From positions 1 to 26,705 of the forward strand of contig JBBILZ010000036.1 of assembly GCA_037444665.1 (NCBI GenBank): DNA of 26,705 nt, written 5' to 3'. The DNA is from a candidate division WOR-3 bacterium (lineage in GTDB: Bacteria > Hydrothermota > Tepidihabitantia > SM23-42 > JAOAFX01). Each line of letters opens with the position of its first letter. Position 1 is the stretch's first letter. Below are positions 10,257 to 22,027 of this stretch, one piece after another. Under the pieces are notes generated by a model that ran no database searches, had not been told where the DNA came from, and saw only the letters and a list, made by a program, of their open reading frames with translations. The position numbers and the translations under genes are program-made.

Positions 10257-10320
10257 TTTATCTCCTTTCATAAAACAAACCATAAGTAAAGAATAAAAAA
10301 TTATGTGACTCCATTGTTTC

Positions 10321-10802
10321 AAATCCGAAATTCCAAACACTAAATCCTAAACAATATCCAATTCCCAAATTTCCAAATTTGGCAGTCATTTGCTTTTCTC
10401 AAGAATAGAACCAAATATTTTAGTCAATTCATTGGCTTCGTTAATCAAATATTCCTTTTTCTGTTTCTGCTCATCTTTAGGTATCGTTAATCGTAACCAG
10501 TACCGACTTTCCTTTGCTTCTTTTTTGCATATCTTTATTCTCATGCAGAAATCTTTCTTGCTCAACGATTCATTCGCCTCTATATAATTTGCGCCAACAG
10601 AACCTGAAGATTTAACTAACTGTTTACCATTTTCAATATTGGGAATTGTCTTAGGAAGTTGAGTAACATATTCGTTTACTCTTTTAGCAAAAAGATAAGT
10701 TCTTTCTTCTAAGTCGTATTGTTTGGAATTTGTAGTTTGTAATTTTGGAATTTGTTTAGAATTTAGAATTTCGGATTTGGGATTTGAAGATATTTTATCC
10801 AT
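10321..10802. mobile_element. Cassette: four-helix-bundle gene between inverted heptamer-repeat (AAATYCN-type) arms
   Basis: Arm 10321-10382 (AAATCCGAAATTCCAAAC...) is inverted relative to arm ~10722-10786 (...GAATTTCGGATTT); homologous arms recur at 15425-15598 and 16392-16631. Confidence 0.6.
10386..10802 (-). CDS. Four helix bundle protein (23S rRNA IVP / TIGR02436, Avd-like fold)
   Basis: YDLEERT..F, KQLVKSSGSVGANYIEANESLSKKDF..RIKICKKEAKESRYWL; the first ~28 aa are encoded by the heptamer-repeat arm. Confidence 0.9.
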   Translation of the reverse strand: MDKISSNPKSEILNSKQIPKLQTTNSKQYDLEERTYLFAKRVNEYVTQLPKTIPNIENGKQLVKSSGSVGANYIEANESLSKKDFCMRIKICKKEAKESRYWLRLTIPKDEQKQKKEYLINEANELTKIFGSILEKSK

Positions 10803-10807
10803 TCTTG

Positions 10808-11517: not shown

Positions 11518-13311
11518 TTACTGAACTAATACTGCTTCAAAACGGCATACCTGTAAACAGGAGCCGCATTTGGTGCATTTATTCGCATCAATAATGTGAA
11601 CCTCTTTCCTCTTACCTGTAATTGCGTTTGCCGGGCAAACCTTGAGGCAAGCCATACATCCAGTGCATTTTTCTGGGAGGATTGAGTATTTGATTAAAGG
11701 CTTGCAAACTTTTGCTGGGCATTTCTTCTCTTTTATATGGGCGATGTATTCGTCTTTAAAGTATCTCAATGTAGAAAGAACTGGATTTGCTGCGGTCTGG
11801 CCCAATCCGCACATTGAGGCATCTTTTACTGCGTATGCGAGCTCTTCAAGAACCTCAAGGTCTTCCATTGTTCCTTCACCATCAGTAATCTTACCAAGAA
11901 TTTCCCACATTCTTTGCGTGCCCTCTCTGCAGGATAAACACTTGCCACAGGATTCATCCCTTAAGAAGTTCATAAAATACTTTGCCACATCAACCATACA
12001 GGTATCTTCATCCATCACAATCATACCGCCTGAGCCCATCATTGAACCGGCCTGTTTCAGAGTTTCATAATCAATGGTTAAATTAAGAAGTTTTTCTGGG
12101 ATACAACCACCAGAAGGTCCACCGGTTTGGACTGCCTTGAATTTTTTATTTTTTGGAATGCCACCACCAATCTCATAGATAATGTCCTTTAGTTTAATCC
12201 CCATAGGCACTTCTACAAGACCGGTATTATTTATCTTACCGACGAGTGAGAAAATCTTTGTTCCTTTGCTTGTCTCTGTGCCGATTGACGCAAACCATTT
12301 AGCACCTTTATCAATAATCTGTGGCACATTTGCCCAGGTTTCTACATTGTTGATTACAGTCGGCTTTTTCCATAAACCCCTTTGAACAGGGTAGGGTGGA
12401 CGCTGTTTTGGAACACCAATCCTTCCTTCTATTGCAGCAATGAGTGCTGTTTCTTCTCCAGAGACGAATGCACCTGCGCCCCTTGAGACCTCAATATCAA
12501 AATCAAATCCCGTGCCTAAGATATCCTTACCCAAAAGTCCATATTTTCTTGCCTGTTCAATAGCCAGTCTTATCCTCTTTAATGCAAGTGGATATTCGGT
12601 TCTAACATAGATGTATCCTTTTTGAGCGCCGATTGCCTTTGCTCCAATTATCATACCTTCAATCACTGCATGGGGGTCTGCCTCAAGGACACTACGGTCC
12701 ATAAATGCGCCAGGGTCTCCTTCATCACCGTTGCAGATGATGTATTTTCCATTCCCGGGTTGTTGTCTGCACCTTTCCCATTTCAAGCCTGTAGGGAATC
12801 CTGCGCCACCACGACCTCTCAATCCAGATTCTTTTATCTCTTTTATAATCTCTTCAGGCTTCATTTTGGTTAATGCCTTTTCCAGGGCTTTATAACCATC
12901 AAAGGCAATATACTCATCAATATTTTCCGGGTCTATTCTGCCGCGATTGCGTAGAACAATCAACCTTTGAAGCTTGAAAAATCCAATATCTGACATTCTC
13001 GGAACAGGCATTGCTTCTGCTGGTGGTGTATACATCAATTTTTTAACTGGCCTTCCTTTTAACAGATGTTCTTCAACCAGAAAAGGTATATTCTCTTTTT
13101 TAAGTCTTTGATAGAATATACCATCAGGCTGAACAACTACGATGGGTCCTCTTTCACAAAAACCATTACAGCCAGTTGAAATTACTGCTATTTCGTCCTG
13201 TAGTTTCCGTTTATTTATCTCTTTGACCAATGCTTCTCTTATCTCATAAGAACCACCTGCAACACACCCTGTTCCAGCACAGACCAGTAAGTGCATTCTA
13301 TAACCCTTCAA
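11518..13311 (-). CDS. HydB/HndC/NuoF-like NADH/FMN-binding subunit of a HydABC (Bfu)-type oxidoreductase
   Basis: N-terminal 2Fe-2S (CAGTGC, GCNGFC), GRGGAGFPTG, NGDEGDPGAFMDRS, GEETAL, GGPSGG, ESCGKC..C, C-terminal 2x4Fe-4S; TTG start with AGGAGG RBS. Confidence 0.92.
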   Translation of the reverse strand: MKGYRMHLLVCAGTGCVAGGSYEIREALVKEINKRKLQDEIAVISTGCNGFCERGPIVVVQPDGIFYQRLKKENIPFLVEEHLLKGRPVKKLMYTPPAEAMPVPRMSDIGFFKLQRLIVLRNRGRIDPENIDEYIAFDGYKALEKALTKMKPEEIIKEIKESGLRGRGGAGFPTGLKWERCRQQPGNGKYIICNGDEGDPGAFMDRSVLEADPHAVIEGMIIGAKAIGAQKGYIYVRTEYPLALKRIRLAIEQARKYGLLGKDILGTGFDFDIEVSRGAGAFVSGEETALIAAIEGRIGVPKQRPPYPVQRGLWKKPTVINNVETWANVPQIIDKGAKWFASIGTETSKGTKIFSLVGKINNTGLVEVPMGIKLKDIIYEIGGGIPKNKKFKAVQTGGPSGGCIPEKLLNLTIDYETLKQAGSMMGSGGMIVMDEDTCMVDVAKYFMNFLRDESCGKCLSCREGTQRMWEILGKITDGEGTMEDLEVLEELAYAVKDASMCGLGQTAANPVLSTLRYFKDEYIAHIKEKKCPAKVCKPLIKYSILPEKCTGCMACLKVCPANAITGKRKEVHIIDANKCTKCGSCLQVCRFEAVLVQ

Positions 13312-13419: not shown

Positions 13420-13803
13420 TTAATGTGTCGTTTCACTTCCCACAGCAAGGGCATATTCTTGCACAATATTACCCTTTAGCACATGCTCGGCAAATATCTT
13501 TTTAATTTTTTCCGGAGTCAGGTCCACATATTTTACCGGTGGTTTATCAATAAGTTCCACAGTTGCCATCGGTTCTCTGCTACATAATCCTGCACAGCCA
13601 GAAGTTGTAACAATCACATCGGTCACTTTCTTTTTTTCTATCTCGCTCATCAAAGTGGTCAGGATGTCACGGGCACCAGCTGCAATACCACAGGTTCCCA
13701 TATGGACTGTAATCCTTGCCCTTGCCTTGCCTTCTCTCAGCACCCTTGTCTTTGCAACCTTTTCTCTTATTTTCTCCAAATCTCCTATTTTAAGTTTTTT
13801 CAT
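13420..13803 (-). CDS. Thioredoxin-like 2Fe-2S ferredoxin (HydD/HndB-like)
   Basis: VHMGTCGIAAGA and TSGCAGLCSREP motifs; AAGGAG RBS. Confidence 0.88.
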   Translation of the reverse strand: MKKLKIGDLEKIREKVAKTRVLREGKARARITVHMGTCGIAAGARDILTTLMSEIEKKKVTDVIVTTSGCAGLCSREPMATVELIDKPPVKYVDLTPEKIKKIFAEHVLKGNIVQEYALAVGSETTH

Positions 13804-13841
13804 TATTGCTCCTTTTTTTTGTCAGATATATTTAATTTTCT

Positions 13842-14123
13842 GTAGGGACAACCTTTATGGTTGTCCGAAATTTTTATTTTCAGCCCTTGTGGCTGTCCGA
13901 TGTTTCGGACAGGGATAAACCCTGTCCCTACATTGGGAATTTTGTTTTGTAGGGACAGCCCTTGTGGCTGTCCGTTATTTCGGACAGGGATAAACCCTGT
14001 CCCTACATTGGGAATTTTGTTTTGTAGGGACAGCCCTTGTGGCTGTCCGTTATTTCGGACAGGGATAAACCCTGTCCCTACGTTGTTCCCGTTATTTCGG
14101 ACAGGGTCAAACCCTGTCCCTAC
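13842..14123. repeat. GTAG-family REP array (BIME-like), downstream of RAYT
   Basis: Hairpins GTAGGGACAGGGTTTATCCCTGTCC, GTAGGGACAGCCCTTGTGGCTGTCC and GTAGGGACAACCTTTATGGTTGTCC in alternating orientation; 75-bp tandem unit. Confidence 0.9.
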
Positions 14124-14130
14124 AATTTCA

Positions 14131-14883
14131 TTACTGAGGGATTTCATCCAACAACCCACAGAATTCATAATCTTCATATGATTCCACCATTCCTTTTCGC
14201 ACCGGATTATTTAGAATGTATTGAGCAATCTCTTCTATATCTTCATTTCTTCGCAATATATGGTCATAAAACCTTTCTTGCCATAGTTTTTTGATACCCT
14301 TTTCCCAACCCAAGCGGGTCGTTTTGCTTTTAAATCCACCAATAAATCTTGAAATACTAATTCCCGAATTGGCAGGAGAAATTAACAGATGCAGGTGGTC
14401 GGGCATTAAGCAGTAGACATAAACATTAACCTTTGTTTTATTTTTTTCCGCCACAAGACAATCCAGTATTTTTTTATTAAATTCTTTTTCAGTAAAAAAA
14501 CGATTTTTATTTTTTGCACATATTGTTACAAAATATACATAGGGCAATGAGTAGTCAAAGTCCTTTAAACGAGGAGTTTTCCGCTTTGGTAGCAACAGTT
14601 GGTTTATATTTTTATTTTTTGTGTAGGGACAACCTTTATGGTTGTCCGAAATTTTTATTTTCAGCTGTCCGTTGTTTCGGACAGGGATAAACCCTGTCCC
14701 TACATTGGGAATTTTGTTTTGCTTGTAGGGACAACCTTTATGGTTGTCCGAAACTTTTATTTTCAGCCCTTGTTGCTGTCCACAAACATTTATTTTTTCA
14801 TGTAGGGACAGCCCTTGTTGCTGTCCGCTATTTCGGACAGGGATAAACCCTGTCCCTACATCCTGAATTATTTTGGTAAGCAT
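14131..14883 (-). CDS. REP-associated tyrosine transposase (RAYT/TnpA-REP, HUH Y1)
   Basis: RLKDFDYS, YFVTIC, LMPDHLH (HUH), LWQERFYDH, YILNNP. Core domain about 14131-14595; start uncertain (TTG 14595, or ATG 14883 reading through the REP array). Confidence 0.88.
   Translation of the reverse strand: MLTKIIQDVGTGFIPVRNSGQQQGLSLHEKINVCGQQQGLKIKVSDNHKGCPYKQNKIPNVGTGFIPVRNNGQLKIKISDNHKGCPYTKNKNINQLLLPKRKTPRLKDFDYSLPYVYFVTICAKNKNRFFTEKEFNKKILDCLVAEKNKTKVNVYVYCLMPDHLHLLISPANSGISISRFIGGFKSKTTRLGWEKGIKKLWQERFYDHILRRNEDIEEIAQYILNNPVRKGMVESYEDYEFCGLLDEIPQ
14623..14859. repeat. GTAG-family REP array, upstream of RAYT core
   Basis: Five complete and two partial GTAGGGACA hairpins of the same three types. 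Confidence 0.9.
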
Positions 14884-15404
14884 CTTTTAATCTCTCTTCT
14901 CAAAAACTTTAAGACCTCAGGATTATTTATCTCTTCACTTCCGAGTAGCTCCTTAATTTGCTTTGTAGAAAATACAAATTCTTGACCGTTTTTTTTATGT
15001 CGGTAGATAATGTCCATATTGGCTCCCCGTGTTCCAATCAGTGCCATTAGTGTTTCGCACATATCGCCCAGAGGTTTTCGGTCAATATGATTATAACACA
15101 TCTGTGCCTTTACAACAGTACCTTTGCCTAATTTTGAATCAATTTCAATCTTACCATCTGCCTCTTTGACACTCTGTGCAAAAAGCGATAAACCCAATCC
15201 AACTCGTCTGACTTTTTTCGTTGTATAAAAGGGGTCAAAAACCTTTTTCAATGTTTCTTTATCAATTCCTCTACCATTATCTTTTATTTTTATTTTTAGC
15301 AAATTTTCTTTTATCCTTTCTTCAATCACTATCTCCACCTTCGTAGCACCAGCATCAATTGAATTTTCAACAATATCAAGGATATGTAGTGACAGGTCCT
15401 GCAT
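14868..15404 (-). CDS. Stand-alone HATPase_c (histidine-kinase-like ATPase) protein
   Basis: DIVENSIDAGA (N box), DNGRG (G1), FDPFYTTK (F), GLGL (G2); no HisKA domain. Confidence 0.88.
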   Translation of the reverse strand: MQDLSLHILDIVENSIDAGATKVEIVIEERIKENLLKIKIKDNGRGIDKETLKKVFDPFYTTKKVRRVGLGLSLFAQSVKEADGKIEIDSKLGKGTVVKAQMCYNHIDRKPLGDMCETLMALIGTRGANMDIIYRHKKNGQEFVFSTKQIKELLGSEEINNPEVLKFLRREIKRCLPK

Positions 15405-15598
15405 TACTCCTCACATAAAATGTTAAATCCAAAATTCCAAGCACTAAATTCTAAACAATCTCTAAATCCCAATTTTTCAAACTTGGTAAATGGACTAATC
15501 TCATTATGTTCTTCATTTAAGTCATATTGTTTGGAACTTGTAATTTGGGAATTTGATATTTGTTTAGAATTTGGGATTTCGGATTTAGAATTTTTCAT
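15404..15598 (-). mobile_element. Internally deleted derivative of the four-helix-bundle cassette, encoding a 64-aa bridging ORF
   Basis: Arms match the 10.3-10.8 kb copy (53/62 and 64/76 by eye); keeps the SKQYDL start of the gene; only ~31 bp between the matched segments. Confidence 0.7.
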
Positions 15599-16344
15599 TT
15601 TAATGAAATCCTTCTTCCACTTTCATTTTTCAATGCCATTTTTATTTCCTTTATCGTTGGTTCTTCAATCAAAAAACTCGTTGTCAACTTTCCGATATCA
15701 TCAAGAAAATGGGCATCAGAACTGCGAATAATTGGGAATTTTTCTATCTCAGGAAATCGCTTAAGGGCATCATCGGTAGTAATATTTTTTGAAATCTCTA
15801 CAGCATCAATTGCTAAATCTTCAGGAATAAATCCCAATTGTCCAATCAGACTGAAACTTTCGCGGTCAATATGCGAGGCGATTGCAATGCCATTTAATTT
15901 ATGGACTTGTTCAACAATCTCATGGACACCTAAACTACATGCGCCTATGAGCAATCTATCATTATATCCTTCAACCTCATCAAACTCATTGGCAATAATC
16001 TGCTCACCAAAGAGTTGTGGATTATTTTTTTCTTCAGGAAGTGATTGATAAACAAGTTCCTGTAATTTCTGCACTGCTTTTAATTCGTTAAAAAGTCCGA
16101 TAATATGAACTTCTTCTTTTGTGCAGATTTCCATACCAGGAAGCACCTTTAAAGATGGACATATATTTTTTGCGGCGTTAATTGCATAACACACATTCTC
16201 AGCAGAATTATGGTCGCAGATTCCTATGATATCGGGCATAGTAAATCTTGCCTTTTCAACTATTCGTTTTGGCGACATAGTCAAATCTCCGCAAGGAGAG
16301 AGGCAGGTGTGAATGTGGAGGTCTGCGCGATACCATTTTAGCAT
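15595..16344 (-). CDS. PHP-domain phosphoesterase
   Basis: ADLHIHT, ICDHN, PGMEI, EVHI, ASHIDR, SSDAH; ATG at 16344 preferred (alternative 16386 adds a repeat-derived peptide). Confidence 0.88.
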   Translation of the reverse strand: MLKWYRADLHIHTCLSPCGDLTMSPKRIVEKARFTMPDIIGICDHNSAENVCYAINAAKNICPSLKVLPGMEICTKEEVHIIGLFNELKAVQKLQELVYQSLPEEKNNPQLFGEQIIANEFDEVEGYNDRLLIGACSLGVHEIVEQVHKLNGIAIASHIDRESFSLIGQLGFIPEDLAIDAVEISKNITTDDALKRFPEIEKFPIIRSSDAHFLDDIGKLTTSFLIEEPTIKEIKMALKNESGRRISLK

Positions 16345-16631
16345 GAAAGTAGCGAGTGGAGAGTAGAAAGTAGAGAGAAGTTGCATTTTTTAAATTCTAA
16401 ATTCCAAGCACTAAATCCTTTGCTATAATGGTTTTTAGTAAAAAACTGTTGGGCATAGATGCCAGTATGGTCTGATGTTAAATGTTGAGAGTTTAATAGA
16501 TTTTTCATCTTAAGACTATGCCTATTAACAATACTGGTTGCGATGCCGTATAACCTATGACCATGCCTGTTGCTAAGAAATTGTTTAGAATTTAGGATTT
16601 CGGATTTGGAATTTAAAGATATTTTATCCAT
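16338..16631 (-). mobile_element. Second derivative of the four-helix-bundle cassette with an unrelated interior, encoding a 97-aa bridging ORF
   Basis: 16581-16631 matches 10752-10802 at 48/51; 16392-16419 matches 10321-10348 at 25/28. Confidence 0.65.
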
Positions 16632-16636
16632 CTATT

Positions 16637-16990
16637 CTATCTTTCTCCCGAAATGCCCATTTCGTATAATCTTCCTACCACCTCAAAAGCAGATACTTCA
16701 GTGGTCATAATTGGTATCTTTTCCTGTTCTGCTTTTTTTATTGTCTCAGATTCAGGTTTACGATTGCCAGTAATCACAATGCCACTGATTTCCTTTAAAA
16801 CCGCTACTGCCACAATATTGGGATGAACCTGCATAGTAACCCAGATATCGCCTTTTTTTGCATTTGCCATCACATCACTTAAGAGGTCGCTCACATAACC
16901 TCCAGTTACAAGGCGGTTAAGAAAATCTTTTCCGCACATAACTTTTAGTCCTAATGTTTTTATTATTTCCAAAAGTTGGATTTCTTTCAT
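16637..16990 (-). CDS. DRTGG-domain protein
   Basis: GGYVSDLLSDVM, WVTMQVHPNIVAVA; ATG at 16990 forms an ATGA overlap with the upstream stop. Confidence 0.85.
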   Translation of the reverse strand: MKEIQLLEIIKTLGLKVMCGKDFLNRLVTGGYVSDLLSDVMANAKKGDIWVTMQVHPNIVAVAVLKEISGIVITGNRKPESETIKKAEQEKIPIMTTEVSAFEVVGRLYEMGISGER

Positions 16991-18255
16991 AAATTTGATT
17001 CTCCCAGGTAAACACAAGTTCTCGGACCTGGTTCATTCCTAACCAGGTCTTCTGCAAATGATTCGCAGTCCGGTGCACCACAAACACCACAATTTATACC
17101 GGGAAGGCTTTTCAATATCTTCTCTTTCTTTTTCAGTTTTTTGATCGCTTCATTTTTATCAGGGTCAAGCGGTGGAAAGGGTTTTGGTTTTATATCCCTT
17201 TCAAATGAAAAAAATTCTTTTTCGTATAATTGTTTTACATAGTCAACATCAATCCGATTCTTTCCACCGTATCGCCGTATCAATTTTAAGATGTGGCTCT
17301 TTGCCAGAAATCTATTTTCTACAGTCAGAGGTCCACCAATACAACCATCCGGGCAAATAAGACATTCAAGATATTCTATATTTTTTATTTTGCCCGATTC
17401 TACATCATTAAGAATCTTTATTGTATCATATACGCCAGAAACAGAAATTGAAGCATCCTGTTTTATACCCCTTATCTCTCCACCGGAAATTGCCCAGCCA
17501 ATGCCGATTCCACTTATCTGGCTCTGTGTTTGAAGCAAAAATTTACGTTCTTTTCTTTTTAATTTTGCCATTATTTGGTTATAAATTTCTCTTATTGATA
17601 TAGCACCATCAAGATAAGACTTTTCCATTGTCTCTGGTTTGTTTATAGAAACCATCTTTGCTGAACAGGAAGTAATATGAAAAATGCCAATTTCATTTTC
17701 TTCTATCCTGTGTTCTTTAGCAAGTTCCTTTCTTAAATTTTTTGCTGCAACTTCTCTTGGCGGTTCCATTCTAATAATCAGTGGAACCAAATCAGGAAAT
17801 AGCCGCTGAATCAACCTTACAACTACCGGGCAGGTTGATGAAATTATAGGCCTGGGTGTTCTATTTCTTGTCAAATACTCTTCAATGGCAATAGAAGTCA
17901 TTTCGCAGGCAAGTGCCTCATCATAGACATAGTCAAATCCAATTTCTTTTAAGACAATTAATATCTCGTCAGGCATAATATCAGAGCCAAATTGTGAATA
18001 GAGAACTGGAGATGGAAGTGCAACTTTTATTCTGAAACGCTCAATGTCTGAGGTTTTGGTTGTTAAAGGTGTAATGGCGTTATAAGGGCATACCCGGTAA
18101 CATTCACCGCAATCAATACATCTTTCTGCAATTACTTTTGCTTTTTTATCTCTGACTCTTATTGCCTTTGTTGGGCAGGCTTTCATACAGGCGACACAAC
18201 CAATGCACTTTGTCTCATCTATTTCTACTGAGTGATAAATAGCTTGCTCGTTCAT
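16987..18255 (-). CDS. [FeFe]-hydrogenase-like Fe-S protein (group C/D type, putative sensory)
   Basis: N-terminal 2x4Fe-4S; degenerate H-cluster motifs SSTCP, TSCSAK, ECLICPDGCIGG; C-terminal LPGINCGVCGAPDC Fe-S motif. Confidence 0.82.
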   Translation of the reverse strand: MNEQAIYHSVEIDETKCIGCVACMKACPTKAIRVRDKKAKVIAERCIDCGECYRVCPYNAITPLTTKTSDIERFRIKVALPSPVLYSQFGSDIMPDEILIVLKEIGFDYVYDEALACEMTSIAIEEYLTRNRTPRPIISSTCPVVVRLIQRLFPDLVPLIIRMEPPREVAAKNLRKELAKEHRIEENEIGIFHITSCSAKMVSINKPETMEKSYLDGAISIREIYNQIMAKLKRKERKFLLQTQSQISGIGIGWAISGGEIRGIKQDASISVSGVYDTIKILNDVESGKIKNIEYLECLICPDGCIGGPLTVENRFLAKSHILKLIRRYGGKNRIDVDYVKQLYEKEFFSFERDIKPKPFPPLDPDKNEAIKKLKKKEKILKSLPGINCGVCGAPDCESFAEDLVRNEPGPRTCVYLGESNL

Positions 18256-19578: not shown

Positions 19579-19606
19579 ATTATATTCATTTTTGTCTAAA
19601 AGTCAA
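19579..19606 (-). promoter_or_regulatory. sigma70-like promoter of the long redox operon
   Basis: TTGACT (19606-19601), 16 bp, TATAAT (19584-19579). Confidence 0.7.
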
Positions 19607-19684: not shown

Positions 19685-22027
19685 ATGAAAAATGCCTTAA
19701 GAAAAAAGGTGCTCAGGATATTATCCTCTGGAATTGTCGTATTCGTATTAGCAATTATTATCTTTTTTATGATACCTCCTCAAAAGGGTTCACTTTATCC
19801 TGAATTCAGTTCTTTTATAATTACTGATAGGAACGGCACCCTTTTGAGAGAGGTTTTATCTAAGGATTATAAGACGAGTGTATGGAAACCATTAAGAGAG
19901 ATTTCACCTGATATGATAAAGGCAACCATAATAAGGGAAGATAAAAGATTTTTTCTGCACAAAGGAATAGATTTTATTGCCCTTTTCAGGGCACTTTATG
20001 AGAATATCAGTTCGGGTAAGGTTCGTTCTGGTGGTTCTACAATCACAATGCAGGTAGCAAAGATTTTATTAAATTATCAAAATCTGAATATTTTAAAAAA
20101 ATTTATACAGATTATTTATGCGTTAAAATTGGAACTCTATCTAAATAAAGAGCAAATACTTGAAATCTATCTTAATAGGGCACCTTATGGAAACCAGACA
20201 TATGGGGTAGAGGCAGCCGCAAGGTTTTATTTTAATAAACCAGCAAAAGACCTTTCTTTGAGTGAATCCTGTTTGTTAGCACAAATCCCAAAGGCACCAT
20301 CATTACTCCATCCAATAAAAAATTTTCTTCTTACTGAAAAGAACAAAATTGATTTGTTAGAGAAAATTTTAAAATATGGACTCATAGACACGTTCTCATA
20401 TCTTTGTGCAAAGAACGAACAAAGTATAGTGAATAGAAAGAAGATATTATTCAGGGCACCCCATTTTGTTGATTTTATTTTAAGTCAGAACATTACAAAA
20501 ACATATTCAACTATTACATCAACAATTGATTACAACTTACAGGAAAAGTTAGAAAAAATATTATTTACTTCAATAAATGCTTTAAAAAAATACAATGTCA
20601 ACCAGGGTTCAATTGTTGTTATTGATACAAAGACCGGCGAGATTATGGCAATGGTTGGTTCAAAGGACTATTTTGAAGAAAACGAAGGCCAGGTGAATGG
20701 TTGTGTTTCATTGCGCCAGCCTGGTTCAAGTTTAAAGCCATTTTTATATATTTTAGCACTCCAGAATGGTTTTCCAATGAGTTACTTGATGAATGATACG
20801 GTTACTGAATTTAAATTACCAGATGGCACAGTCTTTGCACCGAGAAATTATGGCAATAAATATCACAGACTTGTCCGGGCAAGGGAAGCGCTCGGTTCTT
20901 CATTCAATGTTCCTGCAGTCATCCTCCTTGATAAGATCGGCGTAGAAAATTTTTATACATTTCTTACAAGGCTCCATTTTACAACCTTATTTAAAAACCC
21001 GAATTTTTATGGATACTCGCTTTCATTGGGTGCTGCAGAAGTAAAACTCATTGAACTTGTGAATGCTTATCGGGCAATTGCTAATAAGGGAATGTGGACA
21101 CAATACAAATTCATAAAGAATGAAAAATCTGAAAGAATAGGGGAGAGGGTCTTCTCTGAAGAGGCAGCATATATAATAACCAATGTTCTTTCTGATAATT
21201 CAAGCAGGATTAAGGCATTTGGTGATGATTCGCCTTTGAACCTGCCATTTCCCTGTGCAGTAAAGACTGGCACAACAAAAAATTTTAAAGACAACTGGTG
21301 TATTGGTTTTACAGGAAGGTATACAGTTGGTGTTTGGGTAGGAAATTTTGATGGTGCACCAATGAATGGGGTTTCTGGTATTTCTGGTGCTGGACCACTA
21401 TTCAGGGATATTATGATTGAATTGCACAGGGATGGATATCCTGAAGACTTTGAAGAACCAAAGACACTGGTGCATTTCAAAATATGTGCTCAGAGTGGAT
21501 TAATAGCAGGCAAGCATTGTCCAGCTATTGATGAAATCTTTATTCCCGGAACCGAACCAAAAGATACCTGTTATTATTGTGTAGGGACAGGGTTTATCCC
21601 TGTCCGAAGCAACGGGAACGATGTAGGGACAGGGCTTGTCCCTGTCCGAAACAACAGCAATGATGTAGGGACAGGGCTTGTCCCTGTCCGAAACAACGGA
21701 CAGCCACAAGGGCTGTCCCTACAAAACAAAATTCCCAATGTAGGGACAGGGTTTATCCCTGTCCGTAATCTTTGCATTCTCCATCCACAAAACGGTGATA
21801 TCTTTAAACTTGACCCCCACATTCCTTATAAAAACCAGGCAATCGCCTTTAAAATTGAGATAGATTCAGGCATAGAATCCTTTGCCCTGTATCTGAATGG
21901 CAAGAAACTATGTGAGAACCAAACAACCTATCTCTGGCAGCCAAAACCAGGCAGATACGAACTTGAAGCAAGGGCAAATGATAAATCAAAATCATACATA
22001 GAAAAAATTTATTTTACAGTGTATTAA
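19685..22027 (+). CDS. pbpC: Penicillin-binding protein 1C (transglycosylase/transpeptidase)
   Basis: N-terminal TM; EDKRF, GGSTITMQ, YLNRAPYG; SSLK, SFN, KTGT; PBP1C-type C-terminal domain. Confidence 0.9.
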   Translation: MKNALRKKVLRILSSGIVVFVLAIIIFFMIPPQKGSLYPEFSSFIITDRNGTLLREVLSKDYKTSVWKPLREISPDMIKATIIREDKRFFLHKGIDFIALFRALYENISSGKVRSGGSTITMQVAKILLNYQNLNILKKFIQIIYALKLELYLNKEQILEIYLNRAPYGNQTYGVEAAARFYFNKPAKDLSLSESCLLAQIPKAPSLLHPIKNFLLTEKNKIDLLEKILKYGLIDTFSYLCAKNEQSIVNRKKILFRAPHFVDFILSQNITKTYSTITSTIDYNLQEKLEKILFTSINALKKYNVNQGSIVVIDTKTGEIMAMVGSKDYFEENEGQVNGCVSLRQPGSSLKPFLYILALQNGFPMSYLMNDTVTEFKLPDGTVFAPRNYGNKYHRLVRAREALGSSFNVPAVILLDKIGVENFYTFLTRLHFTTLFKNPNFYGYSLSLGAAEVKLIELVNAYRAIANKGMWTQYKFIKNEKSERIGERVFSEEAAYIITNVLSDNSSRIKAFGDDSPLNLPFPCAVKTGTTKNFKDNWCIGFTGRYTVGVWVGNFDGAPMNGVSGISGAGPLFRDIMIELHRDGYPEDFEEPKTLVHFKICAQSGLIAGKHCPAIDEIFIPGTEPKDTCYYCVGTGFIPVRSNGNDVGTGLVPVRNNSNDVGTGLVPVRNNGQPQGLSLQNKIPNVGTGFIPVRNLCILHPQNGDIFKLDPHIPYKNQAIAFKIEIDSGIESFALYLNGKKLCENQTTYLWQPKPGRYELEARANDKSKSYIEKIYFTVY
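21581..21765 (+). repeat. GTAG REP array inserted in frame within pbpC
   Basis: Four GTAGGGACAGGG..CCCTGTCC units (21581, 21623, 21665, 21740) and one inverted unit (21697-21722). Confidence 0.9.

Follow-up and report, generated by a model that had tools for sequence, protein, structure and literature searches.

Selfish DNA has invaded a hydrogenase-regulator operon of a candidate division WOR-3 bacterium at four gene junctions. The reading frames that run through the inserts suggest that these are translationally transparent operon parasites, that is, elements that would be translated from the stop codon of one host gene to the start codon of the next. This reading, in which translation is deduced from the sequence, is given here a probability of about 0.6. 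The operon lies on the minus strand of contig JBBILZ010000036.1 (assembly GCA_037444665.1; C36 below), which in its full length of 26,705 bases is the window analysed here and belongs to a genome (G000) of 2.54 Mb, 120 contigs and 37.7% G+C. Three of the four inserts belong to one hairpin-cassette family, and the fourth is the gene of a REP-associated Y1 transposase (RAYT) accompanied by arrays of repetitive extragenic palindromic (REP) sequences. The original prediction had supposed two unrelated element families, a view with which the Pfam matches and the repeat comparison agree: a PF05635-type hairpin cassette with its remnants on one side, and RAYT/REP on the other.

Inserts and bridging reading frames in the window

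The inserted junctions separate, in the order of transcription, genes for a DRTGG-domain protein, a PHP-domain protein, a histidine-kinase-like ATPase (HATPase) and a ferredoxin; a full cassette lies in the same operon. Four open reading frames (ORFs) bridge the inserts, and the positions and overlaps predicted for them, re-derived from the sequence, are all exact on the minus strand. The inserts and their frames are the following:

16345..16636, minus strand: insA, a composite, gene-less hairpin element with arms of a 7-nt repeat at 16579-16616 and 16389-16426
16338..16631, minus strand: 97-aa bridging ORF across insA, starting 5 nt past the DRTGG stop (16639-16637) and ending in ATGCTAA on the PHP start
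15407..15594, minus strand: insB, a gene-less remnant of the same cassette family, with arms at 15559-15593 and 15421-15460
15404..15598, minus strand: 64-aa bridging ORF across insB, with ATGA on the PHP stop and TAATG on the HATPase start
14131..14883, minus strand: RAYT frame of 250 aa, PF01797 (Y1_Tnp), E 3.7e-13, residues 117-225
13806..14130, minus strand: downstream REP array, from RAYT to the ferredoxin gene, with units of 42 and 75 nt
13803..14177, minus strand: 124-aa ORF through the downstream REP array, whose stop overlaps the ferredoxin start as TAATG
10303..10807, minus strand: full cassette in the same operon, with arms at 10750-10787 and 10317-10355

The junction spacings in the window are +5/-7, -4/-1, -16 and -1. 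At the 64-aa ORF, the ATG (15598-15596) lies on the PHP stop codon TGA (15597-15595), and the TAA (15406-15404) on the HATPase start codon ATG (15404-15402). A single bridging ORF arises in dinucleotide shuffles with a p of 0.003 for insA, 0.013 for insB and 0.005 for the REP array, the last against a null that destroys the tandem structure and is too generous. One of the six frames is open in insA, whose antisense strand is unbridged, two of six in insB (one per strand), and one of the three sense frames in each REP array. The 97-, 64- and 124-aa ORFs match no Pfam family. Their codon-usage log-odds per codon are -0.06, +0.12 and -0.02, respectively, and -0.005 for the RAYT leader, while the real genes of the operon score 0.11-0.22.

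The full cassette carries as cargo a 138-aa four-helix-bundle gene (10386-10802) that begins 5 nt past the upstream stop and matches PF05635, the 23S-rRNA-intervening-sequence (S23p) protein family (E 2.9e-12, 47.2 bits, cut-off 33.8). A 43-aa trailing ORF (10258-10389), under which the right arm lies, follows with an ATGA overlap on the stop of the cassette gene. The same 5' end, including the start of the cassette ORF, and inverted arms of the 7-nt repeat are common to insA, insB and the full cassette, and 27 aa encoded by insB are 70% identical to the N-terminus of the protein of the full cassette. Both inserts lack the PF05635 domain (0 families in Pfam). Since they share arms and 5' end with the full PF05635 cassette, insA and insB are gene-less remnants left by deletion. 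A second cassette type is found at the DRTGG/PHP junction in the relatives G007 and G017, and the final ~40 nt of insA (16345-16385) are similar to its right arm.

The inverted repeats of the cassette copies measure 33-42 nt and are 73-80% complementary. In the minimum-energy fold of each of the three copies they are base-paired, in stems that are A+U-rich and weak (z -1.1 to -3.4). Paired-arm copies with a length of 100-230 nt occur on C2, C19, C29 (two), C68, C89 (two) and C36 (two), in addition to two full copies, and every copy examined sits between protein genes. The cassettes are therefore IVS-like in build (IVS, intervening sequence) and are not rRNA intervening sequences. Operon-terminal copies are few, all of them solo arms; for the REP family, two terminal loci were inspected. 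[quoted passage not shown]

Arm matches inside predicted genes were considered as further inserts and set aside, as 12 of the 15 examined fall within C-terminal sorting-type domains of secreted proteins with the same 7-nt repeat; the remaining 3 lie at N-termini. The twelve sorting-domain genes are found on contigs C3, C5, C7, C10, C13, C14, C24, C41, C55 and C67 of G000. In them, the 7-nt repeat encodes one loop of the domain, and this loop is enlarged in some genes by extra units or by a REP-like stretch.

In the fourth insert, the RAYT core occupies 14131-14610, and the ~91 leader codons before it (14611-14883) are REP hairpins in translation. The ATG at 14883 overlaps the end of the HATPase gene (stop 14870-14868) by 16 nt, the frame reads through the whole upstream REP array, and the domain begins only at residue 117. 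Apart from this ATG, the frame has a single in-frame start, a TTG at codon 98 that is missing from the relative G008. An HLH triplet and a later Tyr are seen in the translation, which we take to be the catalytic motifs. Six copies of a 36-nt, GTAG-headed REP core lie on both sides of the gene and form hairpins in both orientations; further REP copies are found at 21580-21769 of the window and on C53 and C50. Both arrays are predicted to fold very strongly (z -8.4 and -11.2, the latter for the downstream array), and their hairpins look like terminators on the antisense strand alone (4 matches at 13846-14048 and 14627-14647, plus strand, vs 0 in sense).

This organisation extends beyond the window. 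Within the genus, several loci have a RAYT frame that is open across the 5' REPs. G008 has no in-frame start except the ATG with its 16-nt overlap on the ATPase gene, in G002 the frame starts with an ATGA overlap (-4), and G001 (+3) and G010 repeat this layout with REPs of a different family. In each of the three genomes with this RAYT, the downstream array is open as far as the ferredoxin gene, as the TAATG overlap in G000, as an in-frame fusion of 216 aa in G008, and as a 45-aa ORF followed by 21 nt in G002. A REP array of this family also lies in frame within a class A penicillin-binding-protein gene of the window (21576-21772, plus strand; ORF 19685-22027), between the transpeptidase and C-terminal domains, where the REP frame is that of the operon arrays.

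The host operon extends from ~19589 to at least 8673 on the minus strand and encodes NuoE-like, DRTGG, ATPase, [FeFe]-hydrogenase-like sensor, DRTGG, PHP, ATPase, ferredoxin and NuoF-like proteins, among others. The features of the host around the inserts are:

19579..19606, minus strand: best promoter-like site upstream of the first gene of the operon, TTGACT-16-TATAAT, 11/12, a consensus match only
16987-18255, minus strand: [FeFe]-hydrogenase-like sensor gene (Pfam)
16637..17017, minus strand: DRTGG-domain gene, upstream neighbour of insA, PF07085, E 6.4e-10
15595..16344, minus strand: PHP-domain gene, probable phosphoesterase, PF02811 + PF13263, true start ATG 16344
14868..15404, minus strand: HATPase gene, PF02518, E 3.4e-19
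13420..13803, minus strand: thioredoxin-like [2Fe-2S] ferredoxin gene, PF01257, with its own AGGAG ribosome site upstream
11518-13311, minus strand: NuoF-like gene (Pfam)

The PHP start at 16344 is supported by homology, being aligned across 12 genomes; a longer PHP ORF of 263 aa, from 16386, starts within insA.

Bridging at the same junctions in relatives and across the genome

Of 41 related genomes searched with the PHP protein, 34 contain the operon, and 12 loci were analysed. In four sister-family genomes, the DRTGG and PHP genes meet in a TAATG overlap, and G040 has a 2-nt gap at PHP/HATPase and an ATGA overlap at HATPase/ferredoxin. The empty, overlapping or near-overlapping junctions of the sister family represent the ancestral state, and the same junctions have been repeatedly invaded in the other genomes. 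Bridging of these inserts was distributed as follows, with the number of bridges expected from shuffles given last:

PHP/HATPase: 10 inserts, 10 sense-bridged, 2 antisense, 0.875 expected
DRTGG/PHP: 8 inserts, 3 sense-bridged (strict test), 0 antisense, 0.02 expected
HATPase/ferredoxin: 8 inserts, 3 sense-bridged, 1 antisense, 0.92 expected
Three junctions together: 26 inserts, 16 sense-bridged, 3 antisense, 1.8 expected

The inserts at PHP/HATPase represent at least five unrelated sequence types, and when one insert per type is counted with the largest p of each, the product is 2.9e-7. The peptides that bridge one junction are unrelated between lineages. At DRTGG/PHP, two further inserts, with starts at -35 and +28, fall a few bases short of the test. 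The TAA of the ATGCTAA at the end of every bridge there belongs to codons 2-3 of the PHP gene, so this 3' overlap is supplied by the host gene. A strong AAAGGAG-type ribosome site precedes the ferredoxin gene in 10 of 10 genomes and none precedes the PHP gene; bridging is therefore rarest where the downstream gene can start alone.

The inserts differ in length by 36, 117 and 198 nt, each divisible by three; the first and last are deletions and the second is a nested insert of 39 codons in G033 and G038 that is AT-rich, yet stop-free. Frame-preserving indels of this kind, which count as independent events, are suggestive, without being decisive, of retention of the open frame.

Several variants of the operon were also seen among the relatives. 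G006, of the same genus (L056), has no insert at DRTGG/PHP, and its genes overlap there by 7 nt (ATGCTAA), with the same stop that ends the bridges elsewhere. The PHP gene of G002, G006 and G009 (L055-L057) contains an in-frame insert of ~30 codons after residue ~60, which resembles a translated palindromic repeat and leaves the frame open over 287-295 aa. In G004 (L008, 2366-2772), the ATPase gene is split into two overlapping ORFs, and there is no DRTGG gene at that position.

The genome-wide test relied on a crude gene set derived from codon usage, with 2218 ORFs, starts taken from the longest ORF, and 2022 anchor ORFs of at least 100 aa. A bridge was defined as a single ORF starting between -30 and +20 nt of the upstream stop and ending between -20 and +30 nt of the downstream start, and the sense counts were compared with those on the antisense strand and in gaps that had been dinucleotide-shuffled between unchanged flanks. 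A relay test in several steps, which allowed up to 6 ORFs and windows from -30 to +20, was discarded as too permissive, as ~45% of the shuffled gaps passed it. For gaps of 130-200 nt between co-directional genes, the results were:

All co-directional gaps: n=79, 23 sense, 5 antisense, 3.8 expected from shuffles
Gaps with cassette arms: n=7, 6 sense, 0 antisense, 0.29 expected
Repeat-holding gaps: n=27, 12 sense, 0 antisense, 1.6 expected
Repeat-holding gaps minus 2 tRNA loci: n=25, 11 sense, 0 antisense, Fisher p 2.4e-4

The count was restricted to repeat-holding gaps because many of the unique bridged gaps are real small genes (ribosomal proteins, HPr, Cas2). Convergent or divergent gaps with repeats were bridged in 3 of 36 strand tests.

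Cassette genes with their cargo behave in a similar manner. PF05635 genes number 72 matches in 11 of the 12 genomes of the genus, with 10 in G000, all of which lie between co-directional genes and 8 of which have no gene call on the opposite strand within 1.5 kb. At C18, C26, C68 (two), C76 and C36, the arms are covered by small ORFs that lead or trail the cassette gene. The 30 cassette loci of the genus provide 60 sides, of which 23 are direct (<40 nt) and 27 testable; among the latter, 19 are sense-bridged vs 7 antisense and 8.6 expected, with 11/13 bridged on the right arm (p 7e-5) and 8/14 on the left (p 0.06).

Two cassette loci show further peculiarities. At C18:39673-41901 of G000, a full cassette has perfect relay overlaps (ATGGGTAA, TAATG, ATGA), and it sits one gene upstream of a split RAYT-like gene whose ORF begins with cassette-arm sequence. 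At C4:57490-58329 (minus strand), a four-helix-bundle cassette gene continues in frame into the gene that follows, as a fusion of 279 aa, and open frames of 271-285 aa with a four-helix-bundle domain are found in five relatives.

Proposed translational transparency and its alternatives

The elements sit at junctions whose host genes formerly overlapped in coupled stop and start codons. Without exception they share the orientation of these genes, and one sense frame is stop-free from the upstream stop to the downstream start. In the mechanism proposed, ribosomes that end the upstream gene would re-initiate on the frame of the element, the hairpins would be melted by their passage, and termination at the next start would hand them to the downstream gene, often devoid of a ribosome site of its own, which would thus still be translated. 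The cassette protein and RAYT would be made via the same route. Selection that kept these frames open could act on element families, on single copies, or on both.

More tentatively, a guild of unrelated selfish elements may have converged on this way of life in this lineage. Such a guild would comprise several cassette families of the IVS type, gene-less remnants and RAYT/REP, would settle on coupled stop/start junctions, would take its expression from the terminating ribosomes of the host and then pass them on, and would include a RAYT made solely by reading through its own REP hairpins.

Several observations weigh against transparency as a selected property. Among the inserts of the operon, DRTGG/PHP in G007 and G017 is a 60-nt unbridged gap, and 5 of the 8 inserts at HATPase/ferredoxin are unbridged. 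Across the genome, repeat-holding gaps of 200-451 nt are bridged in just 2 of 59 cases. Openness may moreover come cheaply. Each cassette arm is open in two of three frames on both strands, an antisense frame also spans insB, and the openness of insA and insB is partly inherited, the 5' part of the cassette's own ORF having been retained. Within the REP unit a single sense frame is open and one antisense frame nearly so, and both arrays use that sense frame, as does the copy inside the penicillin-binding-protein gene (units of 42, 75 and 102 nt); being intrinsically open, this frame allows an array to stay open without selection on each copy. Under neutral substitution, the simulated probability that the frame stays open in an orthologous pair is 0.05-0.45 (0.12 for G007 to G010, 0.38-0.44 for G008/G015, 0.35-0.45 for G033/G038, and 0.05-0.07 for G000/G007), which is weak evidence for selection at the level of the copy. 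Copies and genomes are also related, so that the p-values overstate the case.

The coupling overlaps themselves add to these points. The genome uses the -4 overlap in 241 and the -1 overlap in 54 of 1718 co-directional pairs, and exact ATGA/TAATG overlaps are not enriched in the bridges over shuffled interiors with real host flanks: -4 is found in 8/21 real bridges vs 0.255 of the shuffled-interior ones (p 0.14), and -1 in 4/21 vs 0.141 (p 0.34). These overlaps derive from the ends of the host genes. Re-initiation requires overlaps or very short gaps, according to published work (PMC10666635), and junctions at -16, -47 and +28 fit these published needs poorly.

The long unbridged gaps hold other REP-like hairpins and promoter-like boxes (11 loci inspected) and for that reason look like operon ends. 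They are filled by two more high-copy hairpin families and by a low-complexity CTAC-rich repeat, as at C53:1535-1807, C61:841-1187, C62:7827-8116, C8:17011-17426 and others in G000, and are probably operon ends.

The prediction that the inserts are stop-free beyond chance consequently stands for sense bridging (11/25 vs 0/25 antisense) and falls for the coupling overlaps. The further idea that they have been selected to be non-polar is upheld in part: bridging is recurrent, sense-specific and non-random, but openness is partly inherited or intrinsic, many inserts are unbridged, and the simulated probabilities lie at 0.05-0.45.

The most serious alternative, rather unlikely in our estimation, regards the bridges as a by-product of a leftover cassette frame and of stop-poor repeats (heptamer arms, G+C-rich palindromes, units that are multiples of three), with no selection for translation. 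The overlaps would be old host junctions, and the downstream genes would start alone or their products would be dispensable regulators. This explanation accounts for the cassette ORF 5' end kept in insA and insB, for the arms, the antisense frame of insB and the single open frame per strand of the REP unit, and for canonical overlaps that are not enriched and neutral simulations that are merely mildly unlikely. It also agrees with the Shine-Dalgarno-like sequences found before the HATPase and ferredoxin genes, and with the split HATPase gene of G004, which implies that regulators can decay. What it does not predict is the asymmetry of the strands over whole gaps, 11/25 vs 0/25 genome-wide and 16/26 vs 3/26 in the operon, or that the at least five unrelated insert sequences at PHP/HATPase are all bridged. 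The nested AT-rich insert of 117 nt, in frame and stop-free, the decayed cassette gene of G010, still open despite 62 changes in 171 nt, and the RAYT gene of G008, without a start of its own, argue in the same direction.

An action at the RNA level, in which the hairpins would serve as RNase III sites, mRNA stabilisers or attenuators that set product ratios and the ORFs would be irrelevant, is improbable. The arms pair in predicted folds, the REP arrays reach z of -8.4 and -11.2, RNase III is reported to cut the stems of 23S IVS (PMC4990558), and mRNA processing and stability are described as affected by Correia and REP elements (PMC2229807, PMC10969869). The cassette stems, however, are A+U-rich and weak (z -1.1 to -3.4), and such an action leaves unexplained why the host-sense frame alone is kept stop-free. 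It is in any case compatible with a ribosome relay, in which translation would control stem formation. That the bridges encode small proteins functional in their own right, as their open, often coupled frames recurring at the same junction in relatives might suggest, is hardly credible, given that they match no family, three of four have non-coding-like codon usage, different lineages have unrelated peptides at one and the same junction, and the sequences are translated repeats and hairpins.

Significance and comparison with known systems

If the bridges are translated, they would show how selfish DNA can settle, with no polar harm, in the most compact parts of a bacterial genome, where coupled genes overlap by 1-4 nt. 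They would also provide an expression strategy for the long-unexplained four-helix-bundle cassettes of rRNA intervening sequences, and would include a RAYT transposase that is made only if its own REPs are translated. If the guild is real, the dosage of transposase and cassette protein would be tied to the translation of the host operon, which would also explain the repeated re-invasion of one junction without loss of the operon. In annotation, gene callers will turn the bridges into hypothetical proteins or lengthen real genes so that they reach into an insert, as in the 263-aa PHP ORF. The operon in its 12 genomes constitutes a natural experiment, with the same junction empty, filled, re-filled and decayed.

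[quoted passage not shown] In the part of a J Bacteriol review of 2025 considered here (PMC12548453, citing Supply et al. 1997), these are apparently mobile, insert at start codons, and hold an ORF coupled at -4 nt, a coupling that probably minimises their effect on expression. The elements of the WOR-3 operon are likewise apparently mobile repeats at gene junctions, with an ORF co-oriented with its flanks and reaching from the stop of one to the start of the other. Unlike MIRUs, they occur in another phylum and are unrelated in kind, so that the likeness is one of function only: MIRUs are tandem units of 40-100 bp without cargo, while here the elements are cassettes whose cargo is a four-helix-bundle gene, remnants of such cassettes, and a transposase gene accompanied by REPs.

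The cassettes resemble in build the ORF-bearing 23S rRNA IVS of Coxiella and Leptospira, which are characterised by a terminal stem, tandem heptameric repeats by the ORF start and an S23p ORF, and are regarded as selfish elements of unknown mobility (PMC4990558). Stem-forming inverted repeats, heptameric repeats and a PF05635 ORF are common to both. However, the 23S IVS sit in helix 45 and are excised by RNase III, whereas the cassettes sit between the protein genes of operons and have their arms covered by reading frames.

Rickettsia palindromic elements, ERIC, the 107-bp Correia element and YPAL are reported to be MITEs with contiguous ORFs that are fused in frame inside genes (PMC2229807, PMC3184786, PMC10969869). 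They are similarly small palindromic repeats, stop-free in a frame and tolerated when translated. Contrary to those in-gene fusions, separate ORFs bridge stop and start here; the words operon and polar are absent from PMC2229807. [quoted passage not shown] A literature search, to which subscription journals were mostly outside scope and whose silence therefore weighs little, found no description of four-helix-bundle cassettes in operons or of a RAYT translated through REPs.

Finally, the fourth insert resembles the REP/RAYT (REPIN) systems and the intercistronic REPs of enterobacteria, in that a Y1 gene is flanked by GTAG-headed palindromes and REPs lie between cistrons. Unlike in those systems, the RAYT frame here has its start at the stop of the host gene, upstream of the 5' REPs, so that translated REPs would extend the transposase at its N-terminus.

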